Positions 1-5,364 of a stretch of 7,511 nucleotides of DNA are shown here, one piece after another. The stretch lies in IMG/VR virus record IMGVR_UViG_2698536395_000003, one strand, 5' to 3'. Under the pieces are notes generated by a model that searched no databases, was not told where the DNA came from, and saw nothing but the letters and a program-made list of their open reading frames with translations. Numbering within the stretch: position 1 is the first letter of the stretch; the number at the start of each line of letters is the position of its first letter. The stretch comes from a virus (Duplodnaviria > Heunggongvirae > Uroviricota > Caudoviricetes). A program made the translations under genes and the position numbers.

Positions 1-66
1 AGGGGATTTTCCCTCGTTTTGAGGGATCTCCCTCATTTTAGGGGAACCTCCCTCGTTTTGAGGGAT
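1..66. repeat. Origin-of-replication iterons (lambda ori-type): three complete direct repeats of about 17 bp (10-26, 29-45, 49-65) plus a partial copy at 1-9
   Basis: Direct repeats tccctcgttttgaggga / tccctcattttagggga / tccctcgttttgaggga at 19-20 bp spacing, each an internal inverted repeat, located inside the O coding sequence. This matches the known lambda O-binding iteron architecture. Confidence 0.8.
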
Positions 67-414
67 GCACCATTCTGAGATGTTTTTATTTGGTCCAAAC
101 ATGCCGCCTTGCTGCTTGATAATATTCATTCTGACGAGTTCTAACTTGGCTTCATTGCACCGTTTGACAGGTAACTTTGTAATCTCGCTAAGTTGAGAAT
201 CGGTGATTCTGTCCATTGGTTTATTCCACCCATAGGTTTTACGCAGAATGGCAAGCAGCACTTTAAACTGTCGCTTGGTCAGATCTGCGCCTGAATAAGC
301 CTCAATCAGCATATTTGATAGTCTGGCGTAACCATCATCGAGATCTGCCACATTACGCTCCTGTTCGGCAAAGTTACCTCTGCCGAAGTTGAGTATTTTT
401 GCTGTATTTGTCAT
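1..414 (-). CDS. O: Replication initiator protein O (lambda-type), N-terminal portion; the CDS continues beyond the window start
   Basis: Minus-strand translation from the ATG at 414 reads MTNTAKILNFGRGNFAGQERNVADLDDGYARLSNMLLEAYSGADLTKRQFKVLLAILRKTYGWNKPMDRITDSQLSEITKLPVKRCNEAKLELVRMNIIKQQGGMFGPNKNISEWCIPQNEG..., which I recognise as lambda O. The frame is open to position 1, so the six-frame track does not list it. The coding sequence contains the ori iterons, as in lambda. Confidence 0.85.
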   Translation of the reverse strand, partial: MTNTAKILNFGRGNFAEQERNVADLDDGYARLSNMLIEAYSGADLTKRQFKVLLAILRKTYGWNKPMDRITDSQLSEITKLPVKRCNEAKLELVRMNIIKQQGGMFGPNKNISEWCIPQNEGGSPKMREIPQNEGKSP

Positions 415-423
415 AATGACTCC

Positions 424-501
424 TGTGGATTGATCCAGTAATTCCCTCAGAATTGCATATCAATTTGCTTAGAGTCCCCGGCGGCCACCGGGGATTTTTT
501 C
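424..501 (+). ncRNA. oop: oop-like antisense RNA, antisense to the 3' end of the cII-family gene; candidate promoter -35 ttgagt (389-394) and -10 cataat (412-417); intrinsic terminator hairpin 476-493 followed by a T-tract
   Basis: Plus-strand hairpin ccccgg-cggcca-ccgggg followed by attttttc lies inside the minus-strand cII coding region. A sigma70-like promoter with 17-bp spacer sits upstream at the O start. The position and organisation match lambda OOP RNA. Exact ends are inferred. Confidence 0.5.
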
Positions 502-743
502 TTTGTGATTTCATCAAGCGCATACTTAAAAGCCCTGCTAATCGGACTGATGTCTGATGCCATTCCGAAAGCACACAAGACCGAAGCAATAAATCTCCAG
601 TCCGTTCTGCTTATCTTCGATTCATGACAGCCAATCATCTTTGCCAGACCGCGCTGGGTAAGCGTTGACAGGTTGATGAGTAAATCTGTTTCTGCGCGAT
701 CAATTTCTCGCTGTGTTAGCTTGCTGTAACTTGCTTGTGCCAT
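447..743 (-). CDS. cII: cII-family transcriptional activator (lambda cII / P22 C1 homologue), 98 aa
   Basis: ORF with C-terminal tail ...KKKSPVAAGDSKQIDMQF resembling the lambda CII C-terminus (...KKRPAATERSEQIQMEF). It sits between cro and O. The oop terminator overlaps its 3' end and a TTGC-N6-TTGC box overlaps its 5' end. Confidence 0.8.
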   Translation of the reverse strand: MAQASYSKLTQREIDRAETDLLINLSTLTQRGLAKMIGCHESKISRTDWRFIASVLCAFGMASDISPISRAFKYALDEITKKKSPVAAGDSKQIDMQF

Positions 744-760
744 TTGTTAATTTTCCTATA
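715..760 (+). promoter_or_regulatory. PRE-like cII-dependent promoter with the CII box TTGC-N6-TTGC at 721-734, directed toward cro (antisense) and c2
   Basis: ttgctgtaacttgc at 721-734 on the plus strand is exactly TTGC-N6-TTGC. It overlaps the start of the cII-family gene as in lambda PRE. The -10 element is not confidently placed. Confidence 0.5.
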
Positions 761-799
761 TTGATATATAGCGGCACACCCAGTGGATTTGCCGCTGAT

Positions 800-846
800 G
801 TTTGCTCACCCGGTTAGAGGTGAAAGGCCAGAACTGTTAAAGAGCA
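800..846 (-). promoter_or_regulatory. nutR: boxA (834-846, minus-strand sequence tgctctttaacag) and a boxB hairpin (about 803-823) with loop CUAACC
   Basis: Minus-strand boxA-like gctctttaaca lies about 10 nt upstream of a hairpin uucaccu-CUAACC-gggugag. The same boxA core and identical loop occur at nutL. Located between cro and cII, as for nutR. Confidence 0.55.
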
Positions 847-852
847 ATTTAC

Positions 853-1038
853 TTATGCCGCTTGGCGGTAAGCACTTTCTTGATACTTCAGGGCGCCAGC
901 TGTAACGATTTCCAATCGATAGGCGTCTTTCTCTGGGATAACTTCTTTCCACTGAGAGACTGCTGCATCGCTAATGCCTAGTGCTTTAGCAACAGCACGC
1001 TGGGTTCCGAAGTGGTCAATAACATCTTTTTTGTACAT
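853..1038 (-). CDS. cro: Cro repressor, P22-type, 61 aa
   Basis: MYKKDVIDHFGTQRAVAKALGISDAAVSQWKEVIPEKDAYRLEIVTAGALKYQESAYRQAA matches my recollection of phage P22 Cro almost exactly. A GGAG ribosome-binding site precedes the start on the minus strand. Confidence 0.93.
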   Translation of the reverse strand: MYKKDVIDHFGTQRAVAKALGISDAAVSQWKEVIPEKDAYRLEIVTAGALKYQESAYRQAA

Positions 1039-1118
1039 AGACTCGCTCCGAAATTAAAGAACACTTAAATTATCCACCAAAGGAATCTTAAGTCAAGTTT
1101 ATTTAAGATGTCTTAACT
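1039..1118. promoter_or_regulatory. OR operator region with divergent PR and PRM: three 18-bp sites fitting the P22 c2 operator pattern ANTNAAGNNNNCTTNANT at about 1053-1070, 1076-1093 and 1101-1118; PR on the minus strand with -35 ttgact (1091-1096) and -10 ataatt (1068-1073)
   Basis: attaaagaacacttaaat, accaaaggaatcttaagt and atttaagatgtcttaact each carry the AAG-N4-CTT core. A minus-strand ttgact-17bp-ataatt promoter overlaps the first two sites upstream of cro. The PRM position is inferred and appears to give a leaderless or near-leaderless c2 mRNA. Confidence 0.65.
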
Positions 1119-1769
1119 ATGAATACACAACTGATGGGTGAGCGTATTCGCGCTCGCAGAAAAGAACTCAAGATTAGGCAGGCTGCCCTTGGCAAGATGG
1201 TTGGCGTGTCTAATGTTGCTATTTCCCAATGGGAGCGATCTGAAACTGAGCCCAATGGCGAAAACCTATTGGCCTTAGCCAAGGCTTTGCAGTGCTCCCC
1301 TGATTACCTGTTGAAAGGAGAGGATAGTCTTTCAAACATTGCCTATCACAGCAGGCATGATCCAAGAGGTTCGTATCCTCTAATTAGTTGGGTAAGCGCA
1401 GGATGTTGGATGGAAGCTGTAGAGCCATATCATAGGCGTGCAATAGATAACTGGTACGACACAACGGTAGATTGTTCTGAAGACTCTTTTTGGCTCGACG
1501 TTAAAGGTGATTCAATGACTGCCCCGGCAGGACTGAGTATTCCTGAAGGGATGATTATTCTCGTCGACCCAGAAGTCGAACCACGTAATGGAAAGCTGGT
1601 AGTCGCCAAACTTGAAGGAGAAAACGAGGCGACATTCAAAAAGTTAGTTATTGATGCCGGTAGAAAATTCCTGAAACCACTCAATCCACAATACCCAATG
1701 ATTGAAATCAATGGGAACTGTAAAATCATTGGCGTTGTCGTTGATGCCAAGCTAGCAAACCTTCCTTAA
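1119..1769 (+). CDS. c2: c2 repressor (P22-type CI-family immunity repressor with HTH N-domain and LexA/S24-like C-terminal autocleavage domain), 216 aa
   Basis: MNTQLMGERIRARRKELKIRQAALGKMVGVSNVAISQWERSETEPNGENLLALAKALQCSPDYLLKG... is recognised as P22 C2. The C-terminal domain carries the GDSM serine motif and the conserved lysine region typical of self-cleaving repressors. Confidence 0.95.
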   Translation: MNTQLMGERIRARRKELKIRQAALGKMVGVSNVAISQWERSETEPNGENLLALAKALQCSPDYLLKGEDSLSNIAYHSRHDPRGSYPLISWVSAGCWMEAVEPYHRRAIDNWYDTTVDCSEDSFWLDVKGDSMTAPAGLSIPEGMIILVDPEVEPRNGKLVVAKLEGENEATFKKLVIDAGRKFLKPLNPQYPMIEINGNCKIIGVVVDAKLANLP

Positions 1770-1791
1770 GGGGCTTTCGCCCCTTTTTTAT
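1768..1791 (+). terminator. Rho-independent terminator downstream of c2
   Basis: ggggc-tttc-gcccc hairpin followed immediately by ttttttatt, starting at the c2 stop codon. Confidence 0.6.
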
Positions 1792-1833
1792 TTCCCGTTA
1801 AAAATCAAAGACAAACTAAATTCGCGCCCATAA

Positions 1834-1895
1834 AATTAAGTTTTCTTCAAAAATGCACTTGACCAAAAAATTAAGAGGTCTTAATTTTAAGCCGT
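1834..1895 (+). promoter_or_regulatory. OL/PL: operator sites at 1834-1851 (aattaagttttcttcaaa) and 1869-1886 (aattaagaggtcttaatt); PL -35 ttgacc (1859-1864) and -10 taattt (1882-1887)
   Basis: Both 18-bp sites match the ANTNAAGNNNNCTTNANT pattern found at OR. The second is a near-perfect palindrome overlapping the spacer and -10 of a ttgacc-17bp-taattt promoter pointing toward N. Confidence 0.65.
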
Positions 1896-1932
1896 CAGCA
1901 GGAGGCTGGAAGCCAAACGGAACAGATTGGCA

Positions 1933-1973
1933 GGCTCTTTAACATCGACGAACTCTCAACCTAACCGTTGAGA
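1933..1973 (+). promoter_or_regulatory. nutL: boxA ggctctttaaca (1933-1944) and boxB hairpin tctcaac-CTAACC-gttgaga (1954-1973)
   Basis: BoxA-like element 9 nt upstream of a 7-bp-stem hairpin with a 6-nt loop, in the PL leader upstream of N. Same boxA core and same loop as the nutR candidate. Confidence 0.65.
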
Positions 1974-2083
1974 CCAGAACTTGAGTGGTTTTGGGGATGG
2001 CGCGAATTGCAGCTGCAAGACAGCGATCGAGAAGATAAGCACCTCGACGCGTCATGCGCCAAAGCCACTTAAAGGAGACCATC

Positions 2084-2389
2084 ATGGTAACCATTGTCTG
2101 GAAAGAATCCAAAGGTACGGCAAAAAGCCGCTACAAAGCTCGCAGAGCAGAACTTATTGCCGAGCGACGCAGTAATGAAGCACTGGCGCGAAAAATTGCG
2201 CTAAAGCTCTCTGGTTGCGTCAGAGCAGACAAAGCAGCATCACTAGGAAGCCTTTGCTGCAAGAAGAAAGAAGAAGTTGTTCGAAAAAATAGAAGTATTT
2301 ATTACAAGGATTCAAACCCATTAGGAAACAAAATACATGCAGTCCAAAAAATAAAATTGTACAGTAAACTACCGTACGGTGCTTATTGA
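2084..2389 (+). CDS. N: N transcription antitermination protein, phage-21-type arginine-rich motif
   Basis: From the ATG at 2084 (preceded by aaggag at 2071-2076) the product begins MVTIVWKESKGTAKSRYKARRAELIAERR...; GTAKSRYKARRAELIAERR is the phage 21 N arginine-rich boxB-binding motif. The track ORF 2054-2389 is the same frame from an upstream ATG without a ribosome-binding site. Confidence 0.85.
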   Translation: MVTIVWKESKGTAKSRYKARRAELIAERRSNEALARKIALKLSGCVRADKAASLGSLCCKKKEEVVRKNRSIYYKDSNPLGNKIHAVQKIKLYSKLPYGAY

Positions 2390-2391
2390 GT

Positions 2392-2730
2392 ATGCTTATG
2401 GTGAAAAAGACTATTTATGTTAATCCTGACCGCGGACAAAACAGAAAAGTATCTGATAGAGGTCTTACATCTCGAGACAGGAGGAGAATAGCGAGATGGG
2501 AAAAGAGGATAGCATATGCATTAAAAAACGGTGTAACACCTGGATTTAATGCTATAGATGACGGTCCTGAATATAAGATTAATGAAGACCCAATGGACAA
2601 AGTTGACAAAGCATTAGCAACACCATTTCCTCGCGATGTCGAAAAAATTGAAGATGAAAAATATGAGGATGTAATGCACAGAGTTGTTAATCACGCTCAC
2701 CAACGAAATCCAAATAAAAAATGGTCATAG
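2392..2730 (+). CDS. Hypothetical protein (about 112 aa) immediately downstream of and overlapping the N stop; arginine-rich basic N-terminal half and acidic C-terminal half; function unknown
   Basis: Open frame from TTG 2386 / ATG 2392 / ATG 2398 to the stop at 2728-2730, whose start region overlaps the N stop codon (2387-2389). Followed directly by an intrinsic terminator. Product MLMVKKTIYVNPDRGQNRKVSDRGLTSRDRRRIARWEKRIAYALKNG...EKIEDEKYEDVMHRVVNHAHQRNPNKKWS is not recognisable to me. The start codon is uncertain. Confidence 0.55.
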   Translation: MLMVKKTIYVNPDRGQNRKVSDRGLTSRDRRRIARWEKRIAYALKNGVTPGFNAIDDGPEYKINEDPMDKVDKALATPFPRDVEKIEDEKYEDVMHRVVNHAHQRNPNKKWS

Positions 2731-2753
2731 CCCACTTCGGTGGGTTTTTTATT
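2731..2753 (+). terminator. Rho-independent terminator (tL1-like position)
   Basis: cccac-ttcg-gtggg hairpin followed by ttttttatt immediately after the stop codon at 2728-2730. Confidence 0.65.
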
Positions 2754-2863
2754 GGCTGAACTAACCTAATTTATTACAGCAAGCCACGCAGTGAAATGGG
2801 TGTGACTTGTGTTGGTCGCCAGAAAATGAAATTAGGCAGCAAACCACTTATTTGAGGTGAGAT

Positions 2864-3334
2864 ATGACAAAATCATGGAGCGTACCTTTTCCTGAATCAG
2901 AAACTGAACATGATGGAATGCCTGTTTTCTGGAGATTCCAGGCGACAGTTGAAGAAGATGGGATAAAAATATTCGCACTTCAATATATAGCTTTTCATCA
3001 GACAGAGCATTATGCATGGTTGGTTCCTGCGCATTGGATTGTTAATTTTAAACCAGCACCAAATCAGTGGTTACAGGAATGGAAACAAAGGAGAAATAGA
3101 TATGCAATTAAGAAAGTAGCAAAAAATGCAGAAAGATCTTTTGCATTCCCAACGAAGAAACTTGCTATTGAAAGTTTATTGCGCCGGAAGAAATACCATT
3201 TAATGAGAATAAAACAAGATTTGGCTGTTGTATCAACTCTTGTTGATGGGATGAAAAATATTGATACATCAACACCAGATATTGAATATAACTTTGGACA
3301 CAACCAAGAAACAGAAAATTGGGTATTTTATTAG
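2864..3334 (+). CDS. Hypothetical protein, 156 aa, in the AT-rich island; function unknown
   Basis: ORF with a good ribosome-binding site (gaggtga 6-8 nt upstream of ATG 2864) and a long open frame in AT-rich DNA. Product MTKSWSVPFPESETEHDGMPVFWRFQ...KQRRNRYAIKKVAKNAER...LLRRKKYHLMRIKQ... has an aromatic-rich N-terminal part and basic central patches. No homologue recognised. Confidence 0.6.
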   Translation: MTKSWSVPFPESETEHDGMPVFWRFQATVEEDGIKIFALQYIAFHQTEHYAWLVPAHWIVNFKPAPNQWLQEWKQRRNRYAIKKVAKNAERSFAFPTKKLAIESLLRRKKYHLMRIKQDLAVVSTLVDGMKNIDTSTPDIEYNFGHNQETENWVFY

Positions 3335-3438
3335 TACGAGTAAGCACTGTGTATTCATTCCAACGAGTGAATACACGGAGCAATGTCGCTCGTAACTAAA
3401 CAGGAGCCGACTTGTTCTGATTATTGGAAATCTTCTTT

Positions 3439-3465
3439 GCCCTCTAATGTGAGGGCGATTTTTTT
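3439..3465 (+). terminator. Rho-independent terminator upstream of ea10
   Basis: gccctc-taatgt-gagggc hairpin followed by gatttttttc. Confidence 0.6.
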
Positions 3466-3483
3466 CTGTGAGGATATGAACAG

Positions 3484-3852
3484 ATGTCAAACATCAAAAA
3501 ATACATCATTGATTACGACTGGAAAACATCAATAGAAATTGAAATCGACCATGACTTAATGACAGAGGAAAAACTTCACCAGATTAATAATTTCTGGTCA
3601 GACTCTGAATACCGACTCAATAAACACGGCTCTGTATTAAATGCTGTATTAATCATGCTGGCGCAACATGCTCTGCTTATAGCAATTTCAAGCGACTTAA
3701 ATGCATATGGTGTTGTGTGTGAGTTCGACTGGAATGATGGAAATGGTCAGGAAGGATGGCCTCCAATGGATGGTAGCGAAGGAATAAGAATTACCGATAT
3801 CGATACATCAGGAATATTTGATCCAGATGATATGACTATCAAAGCCGCCTGA
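3484..3852 (+). CDS. ea10: Ea10-like early protein (lambda ea10 homologue), 122 aa
   Basis: 122-aa ORF with ribosome-binding site gagga upstream, ending 72 nt before cIII. The size and the spacing to cIII match my recollection of lambda ea10. Product MSNIKKYIIDYDWKTSIEIEIDHDLMTEEKLHQINNFWSDSEYRLNKHG.... The identification is from memory and should be confirmed by alignment. Confidence 0.7.
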   Translation: MSNIKKYIIDYDWKTSIEIEIDHDLMTEEKLHQINNFWSDSEYRLNKHGSVLNAVLIMLAQHALLIAISSDLNAYGVVCEFDWNDGNGQEGWPPMDGSEGIRITDIDTSGIFDPDDMTIKAA

Positions 3853-3924
3853 GCGCGGCGTTACCGCATACCAATTACGCTTCACTCGAGGCGTTTTTCG
3901 TTATGTATAAATAAGGAGCACACC

Positions 3925-4089
3925 ATGCAATATGCCATTGCAGGGTGGCCTGTTGCTGGCTGCCCTTCCGAATCTTTACTTGAACGAATTACCCGTAAAT
4001 TACGTGACGGATGGAAACGCCTTATCGACATACTTAATCAGCCAGGAGTCCCGAAAAATGGATCAAACAATTATGGCTATCCAGACTAA
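3925..4089 (+). CDS. cIII: CIII protein (protects CII from FtsH/HflB), 54 aa
   Basis: ATG at 3925 preceded by aaggag; translation [54 protein letters not shown] matches lambda CIII. It is absent from the ORF track because it is shorter than 60 aa. Confidence 0.9.
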   Translation: MQYAIAGWPVAGCPSESLLERITRKLRDGWKRLIDILNQPGVPKNGSNNYGYPD

Positions 4090-4222
4090 ATTCACTATCG
4101 CCACTTTTATTGGCGATGAAAAGATGTTTCGTGAGGCCGTCGACGCTTATAAAAAATGGATATTAATACAGAAACTGAGATCAAGCAAAAGCATTCACTA
4201 CCCCCCTTTCCTGTTTTCCTAA
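4058..4222 (+). CDS. kil: Kil (FtsZ-inhibiting host-killing peptide), 54 aa here
   Basis: ATG at 4058 preceded by aggag; [54 protein letters not shown] matches lambda Kil and overlaps the 3' end of cIII as in lambda. The track ORF 3932-4222 is this frame extended upstream. Confidence 0.8.
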
Positions 4223-4276
4223 TCAGCCTGGCATTTCGCGGGCGATATTTTCACAGCCATTTTCAGGAGTTCAGCC

Positions 4277-4573
4277 ATGAACGCTTATTACATTCAGGAT
4301 CGTCTTGAGGCTCAGAGCTGGGCGCGTCACTACCAGCAGATCGCCCGTGAAGAGAAAGAGGCAGAACTGGCAGACGACATGGAAAAAGGCCTGCCCCAGC
4401 ACCTGTTTGAATCGCTATGCATCGATCATTTGCAACGCCACGGGGCCAGCAAAAAAGCCATTACCCGTGCGTTTGATGACGATGTTGAGTTTCAGGAACG
4501 CATGGCAGAACACATCCGGTACATGGTTGAAACCATTGCTCACCACCAGGTTGATATTGATTCAGAGGTATAA
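4277..4573 (+). CDS. gam: Gam (RecBCD inhibitor), short GamS form, 98 aa
   Basis: [60 protein letters not shown]...[10 protein letters not shown] is recognised as lambda Gam. Ribosome-binding site aggag 7 nt upstream. Confidence 0.95.
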
Positions 4574-4578
4574 AACGG

Positions 4579-5364
4579 ATGAGTACAGCACTCGCAACGC
4601 TGGCTGGGAAGCTGGCTGAACGTGTCGGCATGGATTCTGTCGACCCACAGGAACTGATCACCACTCTTCGCCAGACGGCATTTAAAGGTGATGCCAGCGA
4701 TGCGCAGTTCATCGCATTGCTGATCGTCGCCAACCAGTACGGCCTTAATCCGTGGACGAAAGAAATTTACGCCTTCCCTGATAAGCAGAACGGCATCGTT
4801 CCGGTGGTGGGCGTTGATGGCTGGTCCCGCATCATCAACGAAAACCAGCAGTTTGATGGCATGGACTTTGAGCAGGACAATGAATCCTGCACATGCCGGA
4901 TTTACCGCAAGGACCGTAATCATCCGATCTGCGTTACCGAGTGGATGGATGAATGCCGCCGCGAACCATTCAAAACCCGCGAAGGCAGAGAAATCACGGG
5001 GCCGTGGCAGTCGCATCCCAAACGGATGTTACGTCATAAAGCCATGATTCAGTGTGCCCGTCTCGCCTTCGGATTTGCTGGTATCTATGACAAGGATGAA
5101 GCCGAGCGCATTGTCGAAAATACCGCATACACTGCAGAACGTCAGCCGGAACGCGACATCACTCCGGTTAACGATGAAACCATGCAGGAAATTAACACTC
5201 TGCTGATCGCCCTGGATAAAACATGGGATGACGACTTATTGCCGCTCTGTTCCCAGATATTTCGCCGCGACATTCGTGCATCGTCAGAACTGACACAGGC
5301 CGAAGCAGTAAAAGCTCTTGGATTCCTGAAACAAAAAGCCACTGAACAGAAGGTGGCAGCATGA
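4579..5364 (+). CDS. bet: Bet (Red-beta single-strand annealing recombinase), 261 aa
   Basis: [85 protein letters not shown]... matches lambda Bet over its full length. Confidence 0.97.

Follow-up and report, generated by a model that had tools for sequence, protein, structure and literature searches.

Does the DNA between N and ea10 in a lambdoid prophage hide a new phage-exclusion system? The question is raised by a stretch of 7,511 nucleotides (nt) from IMG/VR virus record IMGVR_UViG_2698536395_000003, called here in its full length the window. It comes from a lambdoid prophage, of which it is the immunity and early-left region. Its order is cro (minus strand), the LexA-family repressor gene cI, the promoter pL and nutL, followed on the plus strand by N, two open reading frames (ORF1 and ORF2), ea10, cIII, kil, gam, bet and exo. 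An initial annotation had described ORF1 and ORF2 as an AT-rich, two-gene island in which each gene is flanked by an intrinsic terminator and neither belongs to a recognisable family, and had proposed it as the strongest candidate for an undescribed exclusion, anti-restriction or defence system. Both reading frames (112 and 156 amino acids (aa), plus strand) are present as described, and the interval is a variable accessory slot in which sieB and ral have been replaced: sieB, orf28 and ral are what lambda has between the N stop codon and the conserved DNA that precedes ea10. Our main result is a correction, since the best-looking candidate for a new defence gene turns out to be an unrecognised textbook gene, nun. 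The "island" is very probably a composite, three independent modules arranged as a mosaic, in the pL operon of a lambdoid prophage with phage-21-type immunity from Shiga-toxigenic E. coli (Table 1).

ORF1 matches PHROG 5632, "Nun-like transcription termination factor", from end to end (E 4.8e-71, positions 1-112 of 112), and by tblastn 111 of its 112 residues (99.1%) are those of Nun from phage HK022. Identity is likewise 99.1% to Nun of mEp235, mEpX1, O276 and Kapi1, and reaches 100% in the Lambdavirus genome PDP110P1. Compared with chain N of the Nun-arrested elongation complex (PDB 6ALG), ORF1 is identical at 108 of 109 positions, the lone difference being S11R, which lies outside the arginine-rich motif (ARM) and the C-terminal arrest segment. 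The 26-residue Nun peptide in the 1HJI structure with boxB aligns to residues 22-47 (E 5.6e-11), the ARM is unsubstituted with respect to 6ALG, and the C-terminus, ...HRVVNHAHQRNPNKKWS, is the same as in 6ALG, with all of H93-W108 unchanged. H98, K106, K107 and W108 (mature numbering), described as functionally important for Nun (PMC5386594), are all kept. Judged by these identities ORF1 is HK022-type Nun, a known superinfection-exclusion gene. The earlier statement that it had no assignable family was therefore mistaken, and the proposal of an exclusion gene was right in kind but not in novelty: the protein is 99% identical to HK022 Nun and has structures (6ALG, 1HJI) and decades of genetics behind it.

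The nun gene and the arrangement of N beside Nun are known from annotated phages, fully in mEp235 and partly in PA28, whose Nun appears in RefSeq as a truncated 45-aa coding sequence (CDS) though its full 112 codons are there, 93.8% identical. In bacterial genomes the gene goes unnoticed. The prophage of E. coli O26 strain RM10386, which is 100% identical to the window (locus 3584-4834 corresponds to window 2084-3334), has N, Nun and ORF2 each labelled "hypothetical protein" in RefSeq by the Prokaryotic Genome Annotation Pipeline (PGAP). No NCBIfam model matches Nun or the window N, and PADLOC-DB v2, which does not cover classical exclusion genes, has no model for Nun. With neither PGAP nor NCBIfam recognising it, nun is present but unannotated in about 4% of complete E. 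coli genomes.

Nun uses its ARM to bind, in competition with lambda N, the boxB hairpin of lambda nut RNA, and its C-terminal segment enters the elongation complex and prevents translocation. It has no known role other than the exclusion of lambda and lambda imm434, which have common nut sites, and its concentration in HK022 lysogens, about 100 nM, is too low to arrest host transcription (PMC5386594; PMC4124055). In the window the gene stands behind an N of another kind. This N matches PHROG 271, "anti-termination protein N-like" (E 1e-31), and PGAP places a CDS at the same coordinates; against Pfam N_peptide it scores 18.1 bits, under the cut-off of 27.9. Its Arg-rich N-terminus and the matching nut sites downstream of pL and pR make it a phage-21-type antiterminator. 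Since both nut sites of the window are of the phage-21 type and a pattern search found no lambda-type boxB anywhere in it, the resident phage should be immune to its own Nun. Robert and colleagues reportedly found in 1987 that Nun is inactive on the nut sites of phage 21 or P22. The N stop codon (TGA, 2387-2389) sits 2 nt before the first nun ATG (2392), and nun translation may be coupled to that of N in lytic growth. Further in-frame starts are found at 2398 (ATG) and 2401 (GTG). One of these two is probably the true start, since the first residue of the 6ALG chain is the one that the GTG specifies.

Comparison with other phages placed nun within a discrete cassette. The window contains two perfect copies of a 10-bp sequence, ATTTATTACA, in direct orientation and 472 bp apart, and deletion of one copy together with the intervening DNA restores an in-frame phage-21 N gene. 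The empty site reconstructed in this way gives a single, uninterrupted match (95.9% identity) in phage 21, lambda imm21, DE3 and phiv205-1, while mEp235, Kapi1, PDP110P1, PA28 and phages carrying Shiga toxin (Stx) type 1a match it in two pieces and so carry the insert. The 472 bp contain a replacement C-terminal tail for N, nun and the nun terminator, and the site is the 3' end of a phage-21-type N. The window N ends in the unusual tail ...IYYKDSNPLGNKIHAVQKIKLYSKLPYGAY, referred to here as tail A, and the tail that it replaced persists downstream of the cassette as a non-coding fossil, tail B, which carries the Shine-Dalgarno region of ORF2 and is also kept in mEp235, PDP110P1 and Kapi1. From 2272 to 2747 the window is 96.6% identical to HK022; upstream of there HK022 has its put RNA and no N body, and its copy of the tail is a headless fossil before nun (HK022 locus 2852-3006), the stop of which has mutated to TGG. 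HK022 looks like a derived form that has lost the N body. In 933W (locus 2501-2560) part of a phage-21-type tail remains after an unrelated N of its own. To judge from these remnants, recombination joints recur at the 3' end of N and leave fossils behind, and the unit that travels is the alternative N tail with nun and the terminator.

Perfect direct repeats bounding a discrete 472-bp insert, with a clean empty site in phage 21, are also what an autonomous mobile element with a 10-bp target-site duplication would leave. We consider this highly unlikely: the cassette has no transposase, endonuclease or terminal inverted repeats, it is always found at this single site, and the repeat corresponds to the conserved I-Y-Y codons of two homologous N tails. 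Other kinds of N-tail fossil lie at the same joint in 933W and HK022, a sign that N alleles have recombined at short homology. For the lack of a mobility gene, the single site and these other fossils, transposon target duplication was rejected as the source of the repeat, and N-tail recombination is favoured.

We infer that the N tail travels with nun since it holds the ribosome-binding region of nun and its lysogenic promoter. The 120 bp upstream of nun are 96.6% identical to HK022, a candidate -10 element (TAAAAT) lies at 2352-2357 within tail A, and tail A probably houses the constitutive nun promoter. King and colleagues (2000) reportedly placed PNun just upstream of the coding sequence. 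As the replacement tail is part of the cassette, insertion would regenerate a working N.

The two terminators ascribed to the island have different histories. A scan of 1700-4100 gave 7 terminator-like sites, against 2.0 +/- 1.5 in shuffled sequences, and both sites named in the initial annotation show the pattern of an intrinsic terminator, a G+C-rich hairpin directly before a U-run on the transcribed strand. At the first, the HK022 counterpart has the stem ACCCGC/GCGGGU where the window has ACCCAC/GUGGGU; because this compensatory change keeps the pairing, the stem appears to be functional. It is destroyed in PA28 (locus ~3319-3368) and in the Stx1a phages LC6454xx, which read CCCAC TTCG ATAGA and form no hairpin. 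At the second, a hairpin (3437-3458) is followed by T7 (to 3465) within a conserved sequence, window 3344-3483, that is carried by 327 phage records; its lambda counterpart, immediately upstream of ea10, is 33905-34045 (97.9% identity). Sf6 has it labelled "bsq4 boundary sequence" and "terminator", HK106 and HK75 have it labelled "terminator", and its RNA fold has a z of -5.3. We take it to correspond to the lambda tL2 terminator cluster, which is unannotated in the lambda record used. Because HK022 and PDP110P1 both have this sequence and both lack ORF2, the second terminator is, on this comparison, not ORF2's own but a generic element of the lambdoid pL operon, junction and terminator at once. 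The picture of two terminator-bracketed genes thus holds for the hairpins and T-runs but not for the ownership of the second. The gene on the other side is no fixture either: ea10 is missing from HK022 and PDP110P1, where window position 3462/3464 is joined straight to 3866, and PA28 has a gp17-like superinfection-exclusion (sie) gene in its place, so that by comparison ea10 is itself a replaceable cassette. In HK022 (locus ~3400-4470) a copy of the insertion sequence (IS) IS903 interrupts the loop of the boundary's 14-bp hairpin, and the sieB/ral/ORF2 slot holds no gene at all.

ORF2 has mosaic boundaries of its own. On the left, collinearity with PDP110P1 ends at 2866, the G of the ORF2 ATG, beyond which the two diverge, and that with 933W begins at 2802; on the right, collinearity with PA28 stops at 3477, just before ea10. 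The distributions of the two genes differ as well. Among 5,426 complete E. coli genomes, 221 carry the nun cassette and 598 carry ORF2 (834 places, up to 4 copies per genome); the cassette is also in 30 phage records and ORF2 in 83. In only some 14 of the phage records (PA28, 06-3462 and the Stx1a phages LC6454xx) do the two occur together. ORF2 occurs without nun in 933W, Phi24B, Min27, Stx2 phage 86 and most Stx phages, and nun without ORF2 in HK022, mEp235, PDP110P1 and Kapi1. With separate boundaries, differing distributions, and a terminator and an N-tail fossil between them, nun and ORF2 do not form one system, and ORF2 is by these measures a module separate from nun. That the two together, as an island between terminators, constitute an undescribed exclusion, anti-restriction or defence system, as first proposed, would draw on their adjacency on the same strand of an AT-rich accessory slot and on the records that hold both. 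With ORF1 already known as Nun, each gene widespread without the other, the second terminator generic and no PADLOC model matching either Nun or ORF2, we regard a joint system as barely conceivable.

The base composition, also taken as a sign of an unusual island, is the normal state of this slot. The G+C content of 2386-3483 is 0.378, compared with 0.45 in the left flank, 0.49 in the right flank and 0.454 in the whole window, and a compositional break therefore exists. Its borders are not those of the two genes, however: the AT-rich tract starts within N (about 2270) and ends within ea10 (about 3750), and the lowest-GC frame of 1098 bp begins at 2261. The counterparts in other phages are just as AT-rich (0.402 in the lambda N-ea10 interval, 0.388 in lambda ea10, 0.357 in L0079 of 933W), and AT-richness was for this reason rejected as a mark of something unusual.

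Table 1. Coordinates of the features discussed, in window positions.
Feature	Positions	Strand	Description and basis
nutR	~803-845	-	Loop CUAACC, as in nutL (phage-21 type)
cI repressor	1119-1769		LexA family
nutL, phage-21 type	1934-1973	+	boxA GCTCTTTAAC 1934-1943; boxB hairpin TCTCAAC-CTAACC-GTTGAGA 1954-1973; sequence reading and pattern search
N antiterminator, 101 aa	2084-2389	+	Phage-21-type body; cassette-supplied C-terminal tail from about 2272/2297
Tail A, alternative N tail	2272-2389	+	Ends EEVVRKNRSIYYKDSNPLGNKIHAVQKIKLYSKLPYGAY and stop; common to HK022
Left copy of 10-bp repeat	2297-2306	+	Codons I-Y-Y of N; left cassette edge
nun (ORF1), transcription arrest/termination factor, 112 aa	2392-2730	+	PHROG 5632, HK022 identity, PDB matches
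nun intrinsic terminator	2729-2753	+	Hairpin 2729-2746, ACCCAC-UUCG-GUGGGU, then U6
Right copy of 10-bp repeat and tail B fossil	2769-2855 (repeat 2769-2778)	+	IYYSKPRSEMGVTCVGRQKMKLGSKPLI and stop; phage-21/lambda-type N tail, non-coding; translation
ORF2, early-operon protein, 156 aa	2864-3334	+	933W L0079, Phi24B vb_24B_11c, PHROG 1636
Conserved lambdoid non-coding boundary sequence	3344-3483	+	14-bp hairpin 3347-3378; intrinsic terminator 3437-3465
ea10 (DUF2528)	3484-3852	+	Pfam PF10800, E 2.6e-46; right-hand neighbour

With nun accounted for, ORF2 remains as an ordinary, widespread conserved hypothetical gene. It matches PHROG 1636, a family of function unknown, over positions 1-156 of 156 (E 2.7e-112). 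Neither as a single sequence nor as a profile or set of 69 members did it give a match in Pfam, NCBIfam, PADLOC or the PDB sequences; in PADLOC-DB v2 ORF2 drew a stray Cas1_II hit at E 0.018 and the 69 superfamily members only scattered ones with E above 1e-3. The close family is small, confined to Enterobacterales and "hypothetical" throughout, and we found no paper mentioning the gene as L0079, WP_000167595, vb_24B_11c or under any other name. An exhaustive profile search returned 87 cluster representatives, most of which (about 70) are 130-155 aa long and can be aligned over 19-140; the 69 relatives aligned all match PHROG 1636, have no Pfam domain, fall in function-unknown PHROGs and are unnamed in any source. 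The lambdoid slot is the home of the gene in 933W and other Stx phages but not everywhere: in Pectobacterium and Brenneria prophages, homologues of 55-65% identity stand immediately upstream of xis-int, and more distant members are found among small early-operon genes on the integrase/recombination side of temperate phages, with no common partner. One distant relative, on the JGI metagenome contig Ga0634357_000006 (2919-3365), stands alone on the opposite strand between a tail-terminator gene and other structural genes, the classic arrangement of a moron and a contrast to the early-operon position of other members.

We modelled ORF2 with AlphaFold2 (AF2). A first model, from 20 close homologues, had a mean predicted local distance difference test (pLDDT) score of 59.5 and was not used; the final model, from a deeper alignment, has a pLDDT of 95.9 and a predicted template modelling (pTM) score of 0.83. 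It consists of strands 19-30, 33-46 and 50-55, two short helices, a strand at 83-86 and a 33-residue helix, 98-130. In a BFVD fold search it resembles only uncharacterised phage proteins (E 2e-7 to 5e-4), from Erwinia phiEa2809, Achromobacter phiAxp-3, Delftia RG-2014 and phages of Rhizobium, Tenacibaculum and Cellulophaga; phiEa2809, phiAxp-3 and RG-2014 are presumably virulent. The protein has an isoelectric point of 9.07 and a net charge of +12 over residues 56-130, and the best-conserved polar positions of the superfamily are R24, E46, T47, K83, K87, R108 and K109, of which R24, K83, K87, R108 and K109 are basic. ORF2 probably binds nucleic acid or a host factor. From its position we infer that it is a stand-alone, N-dependent early protein; a consensus scan, which also missed pL, found no sigma-70-like promoter between the nun terminator and ORF2.

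The only tie of ORF2 to exclusion, anti-restriction or defence is its position, and what such a protein might do can be narrowed only by weighing the slot, the strand and the relatives. The most attractive specific guess, and a doubtful one, is that ORF2 is an early anti-restriction or anti-defence protein, an analogue but not a homologue of Ral, made from the N-antiterminated pL transcript and protecting incoming or induced DNA. It sits in the ral/sieB slot, downstream of a terminator that requires N read-through and with no evident promoter of its own; its relatives are in early operons, two of which also have DNA methylase genes; and fold relatives in presumably virulent phages would suit a function in lytic growth. 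Against this, neither ORF2 nor any of its 69 relatives shows homology to Ral or SieB in Pfam or PHROGs, and ORF2 resembles no known anti-restriction family there; the protein is basic, while Ocr and ArdA are acidic DNA mimics; and a hotspot that also houses defence genes says little about anti-restriction in particular. The same slot is that of sieB, and a lysogen-expressed superinfection-exclusion or abortive-infection protein replacing SieB would agree with the abundance of ORF2 in prophages and its multiple copies, with the lone opposite-strand moron in a structural module, and with the broken nun terminator of PA28-type phages, which could let lysogenic nun transcripts reach ORF2. Such a role seems improbable for a protein with no predicted membrane segment, unlike SieB, and a soluble alpha/beta model, with no PADLOC match, encoded on the lytic strand behind a terminator that is intact in the window, with no evident promoter and with fold relatives in phages believed virulent. 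Action on the transcription machinery like that of its neighbours N and Nun, by a Tudor/KOW-like beta domain and a basic helix docking on RNA polymerase or a Nus factor, strikes us as very improbable, as in Pectobacterium, Brenneria and other phages the gene lies far from any N-like gene.

A wider reading of the family is equally speculative. ORF2 and its superfamily of about 70 clusters (PHROGs 1636, 13631, 25384 and 28215) might represent a phage-specific fold with no solved relative, modelled as a long three-stranded beta sheet with a 33-residue basic helix, that serves as an early, single-gene, nucleic-acid-binding counter-defence or host-takeover factor and is the functional successor of Ral in Shiga-toxin phages. 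It would be deployed by temperate and apparently virulent phages of Proteobacteria and Bacteroidota.

Taken as a mosaic of three modules, the locus would work as follows. The first module is the 472-bp nun cassette, spliced into the 3' end of N at the I-Y-Y codons, whose own N tail would keep N intact. Nun would be made in the repressed lysogen, as established for HK022; its ARM would bind boxB of lambda-type nut RNA in competition with lambda N and its C-terminal segment would wedge into RNA polymerase, so that a superinfecting lambda or 434-type phage would fail to express its early genes. The nun terminator would stop lysogenic nun transcripts from entering the lytic genes, and on induction N-modified polymerase from pL would pass it. 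The second module is ORF2, an unrelated single gene in the sieB-ral slot of lambda, which would be N-dependent, act alone in lytic growth and most likely encode a small basic protein that binds nucleic acid or a host factor. The third module is the terminator after ORF2, which is part of the conserved lambdoid boundary sequence where modules exchange.

Several points weigh against this account. The consensus promoter scan gave no strong match for a lysogenic nun promoter in the N tail; the same scan missed the evident pL, which makes its negatives weak, including the one for ORF2. Exclusion of lambda by this S11R allele is predicted from identity. In lysogens of the PA28/Stx1a lineage, where the stem is broken, one transcript could cover both nun and ORF2, a slight mark against their being always independent. 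Fold searches found no significant solved relative of ORF2, and the suggestion that it binds nucleic acid comes only from charge and conservation.

The finding bears on Shiga-toxigenic strains with many lambdoid prophages, where constitutive Nun could silence co-resident or incoming phages with lambda-type nut sites and might affect which prophages can be induced. The cassette anatomy suggests that nun moves with its replacement N tail, which probably houses the promoter. The residual interest of the locus lies in this tidy anatomy and in the uncharacterised fold of ORF2, which, with a confident model and a presence in 11% of complete E. coli genomes and in Stx phages of the 933W/Phi24B type, is a reasonable target of low priority.

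Beyond RM10386, many other Shiga-toxigenic strains have prophages about 99.8% identical to the window, and a set of Stx1a-converting phages is 95% identical over 1900-3900. Many of the near-identical prophages (for example NZ_CP027599.1, strain 97-3250) match the window in three pieces with IS600, of the IS3 family, annotated under the match, which means that in some lineages an IS has inserted somewhere inside the 7.5-kb region. An Rfam scan found no RNA family inside the island; its sole solid match in the window was Lambda_thermo, the cIII translational thermoregulator, at 3912-3970 (88.5 bits, E 3.5e-21).

Each part of the locus has a known counterpart. ORF2 occupies exactly the interval of lambda sieB-orf28-ral, but is unrelated to those genes in sequence and family, being one soluble basic protein on the pL strand; its own relatives, PHROG 1636 with L0079 of 933W and vb_24B_11c of Phi24B, match it in full length, with 98-100% identity in many Stx phages, and are "hypothetical" in every source searched, as are the distant PHROGs. 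The boundary has the identical hairpin-plus-terminator layout of lambda and of bsq4 in Sf6, with no difference of note. With phage 21 the window shares the N body and the boxA and boxB of nutL and nutR, and differs in the last ~27 residues of N, which are the cassette-borne tail KDSNPLGNKIHAVQKIKLYSKLPYGAY, the original tail SKPRSEMGVTCVGRQKMKLGSKPLI being the fossil 472 bp downstream. With HK022 it shares Nun, its ARM and arrest residues, the downstream terminator, the upstream DNA from 2272 and the place just after pL/nutL. HK022, however, has no N gene and relies on put RNA, with only a headless N-tail fossil upstream of nun, whereas in the window nun follows a complete, functional-looking N of the phage-21 type.

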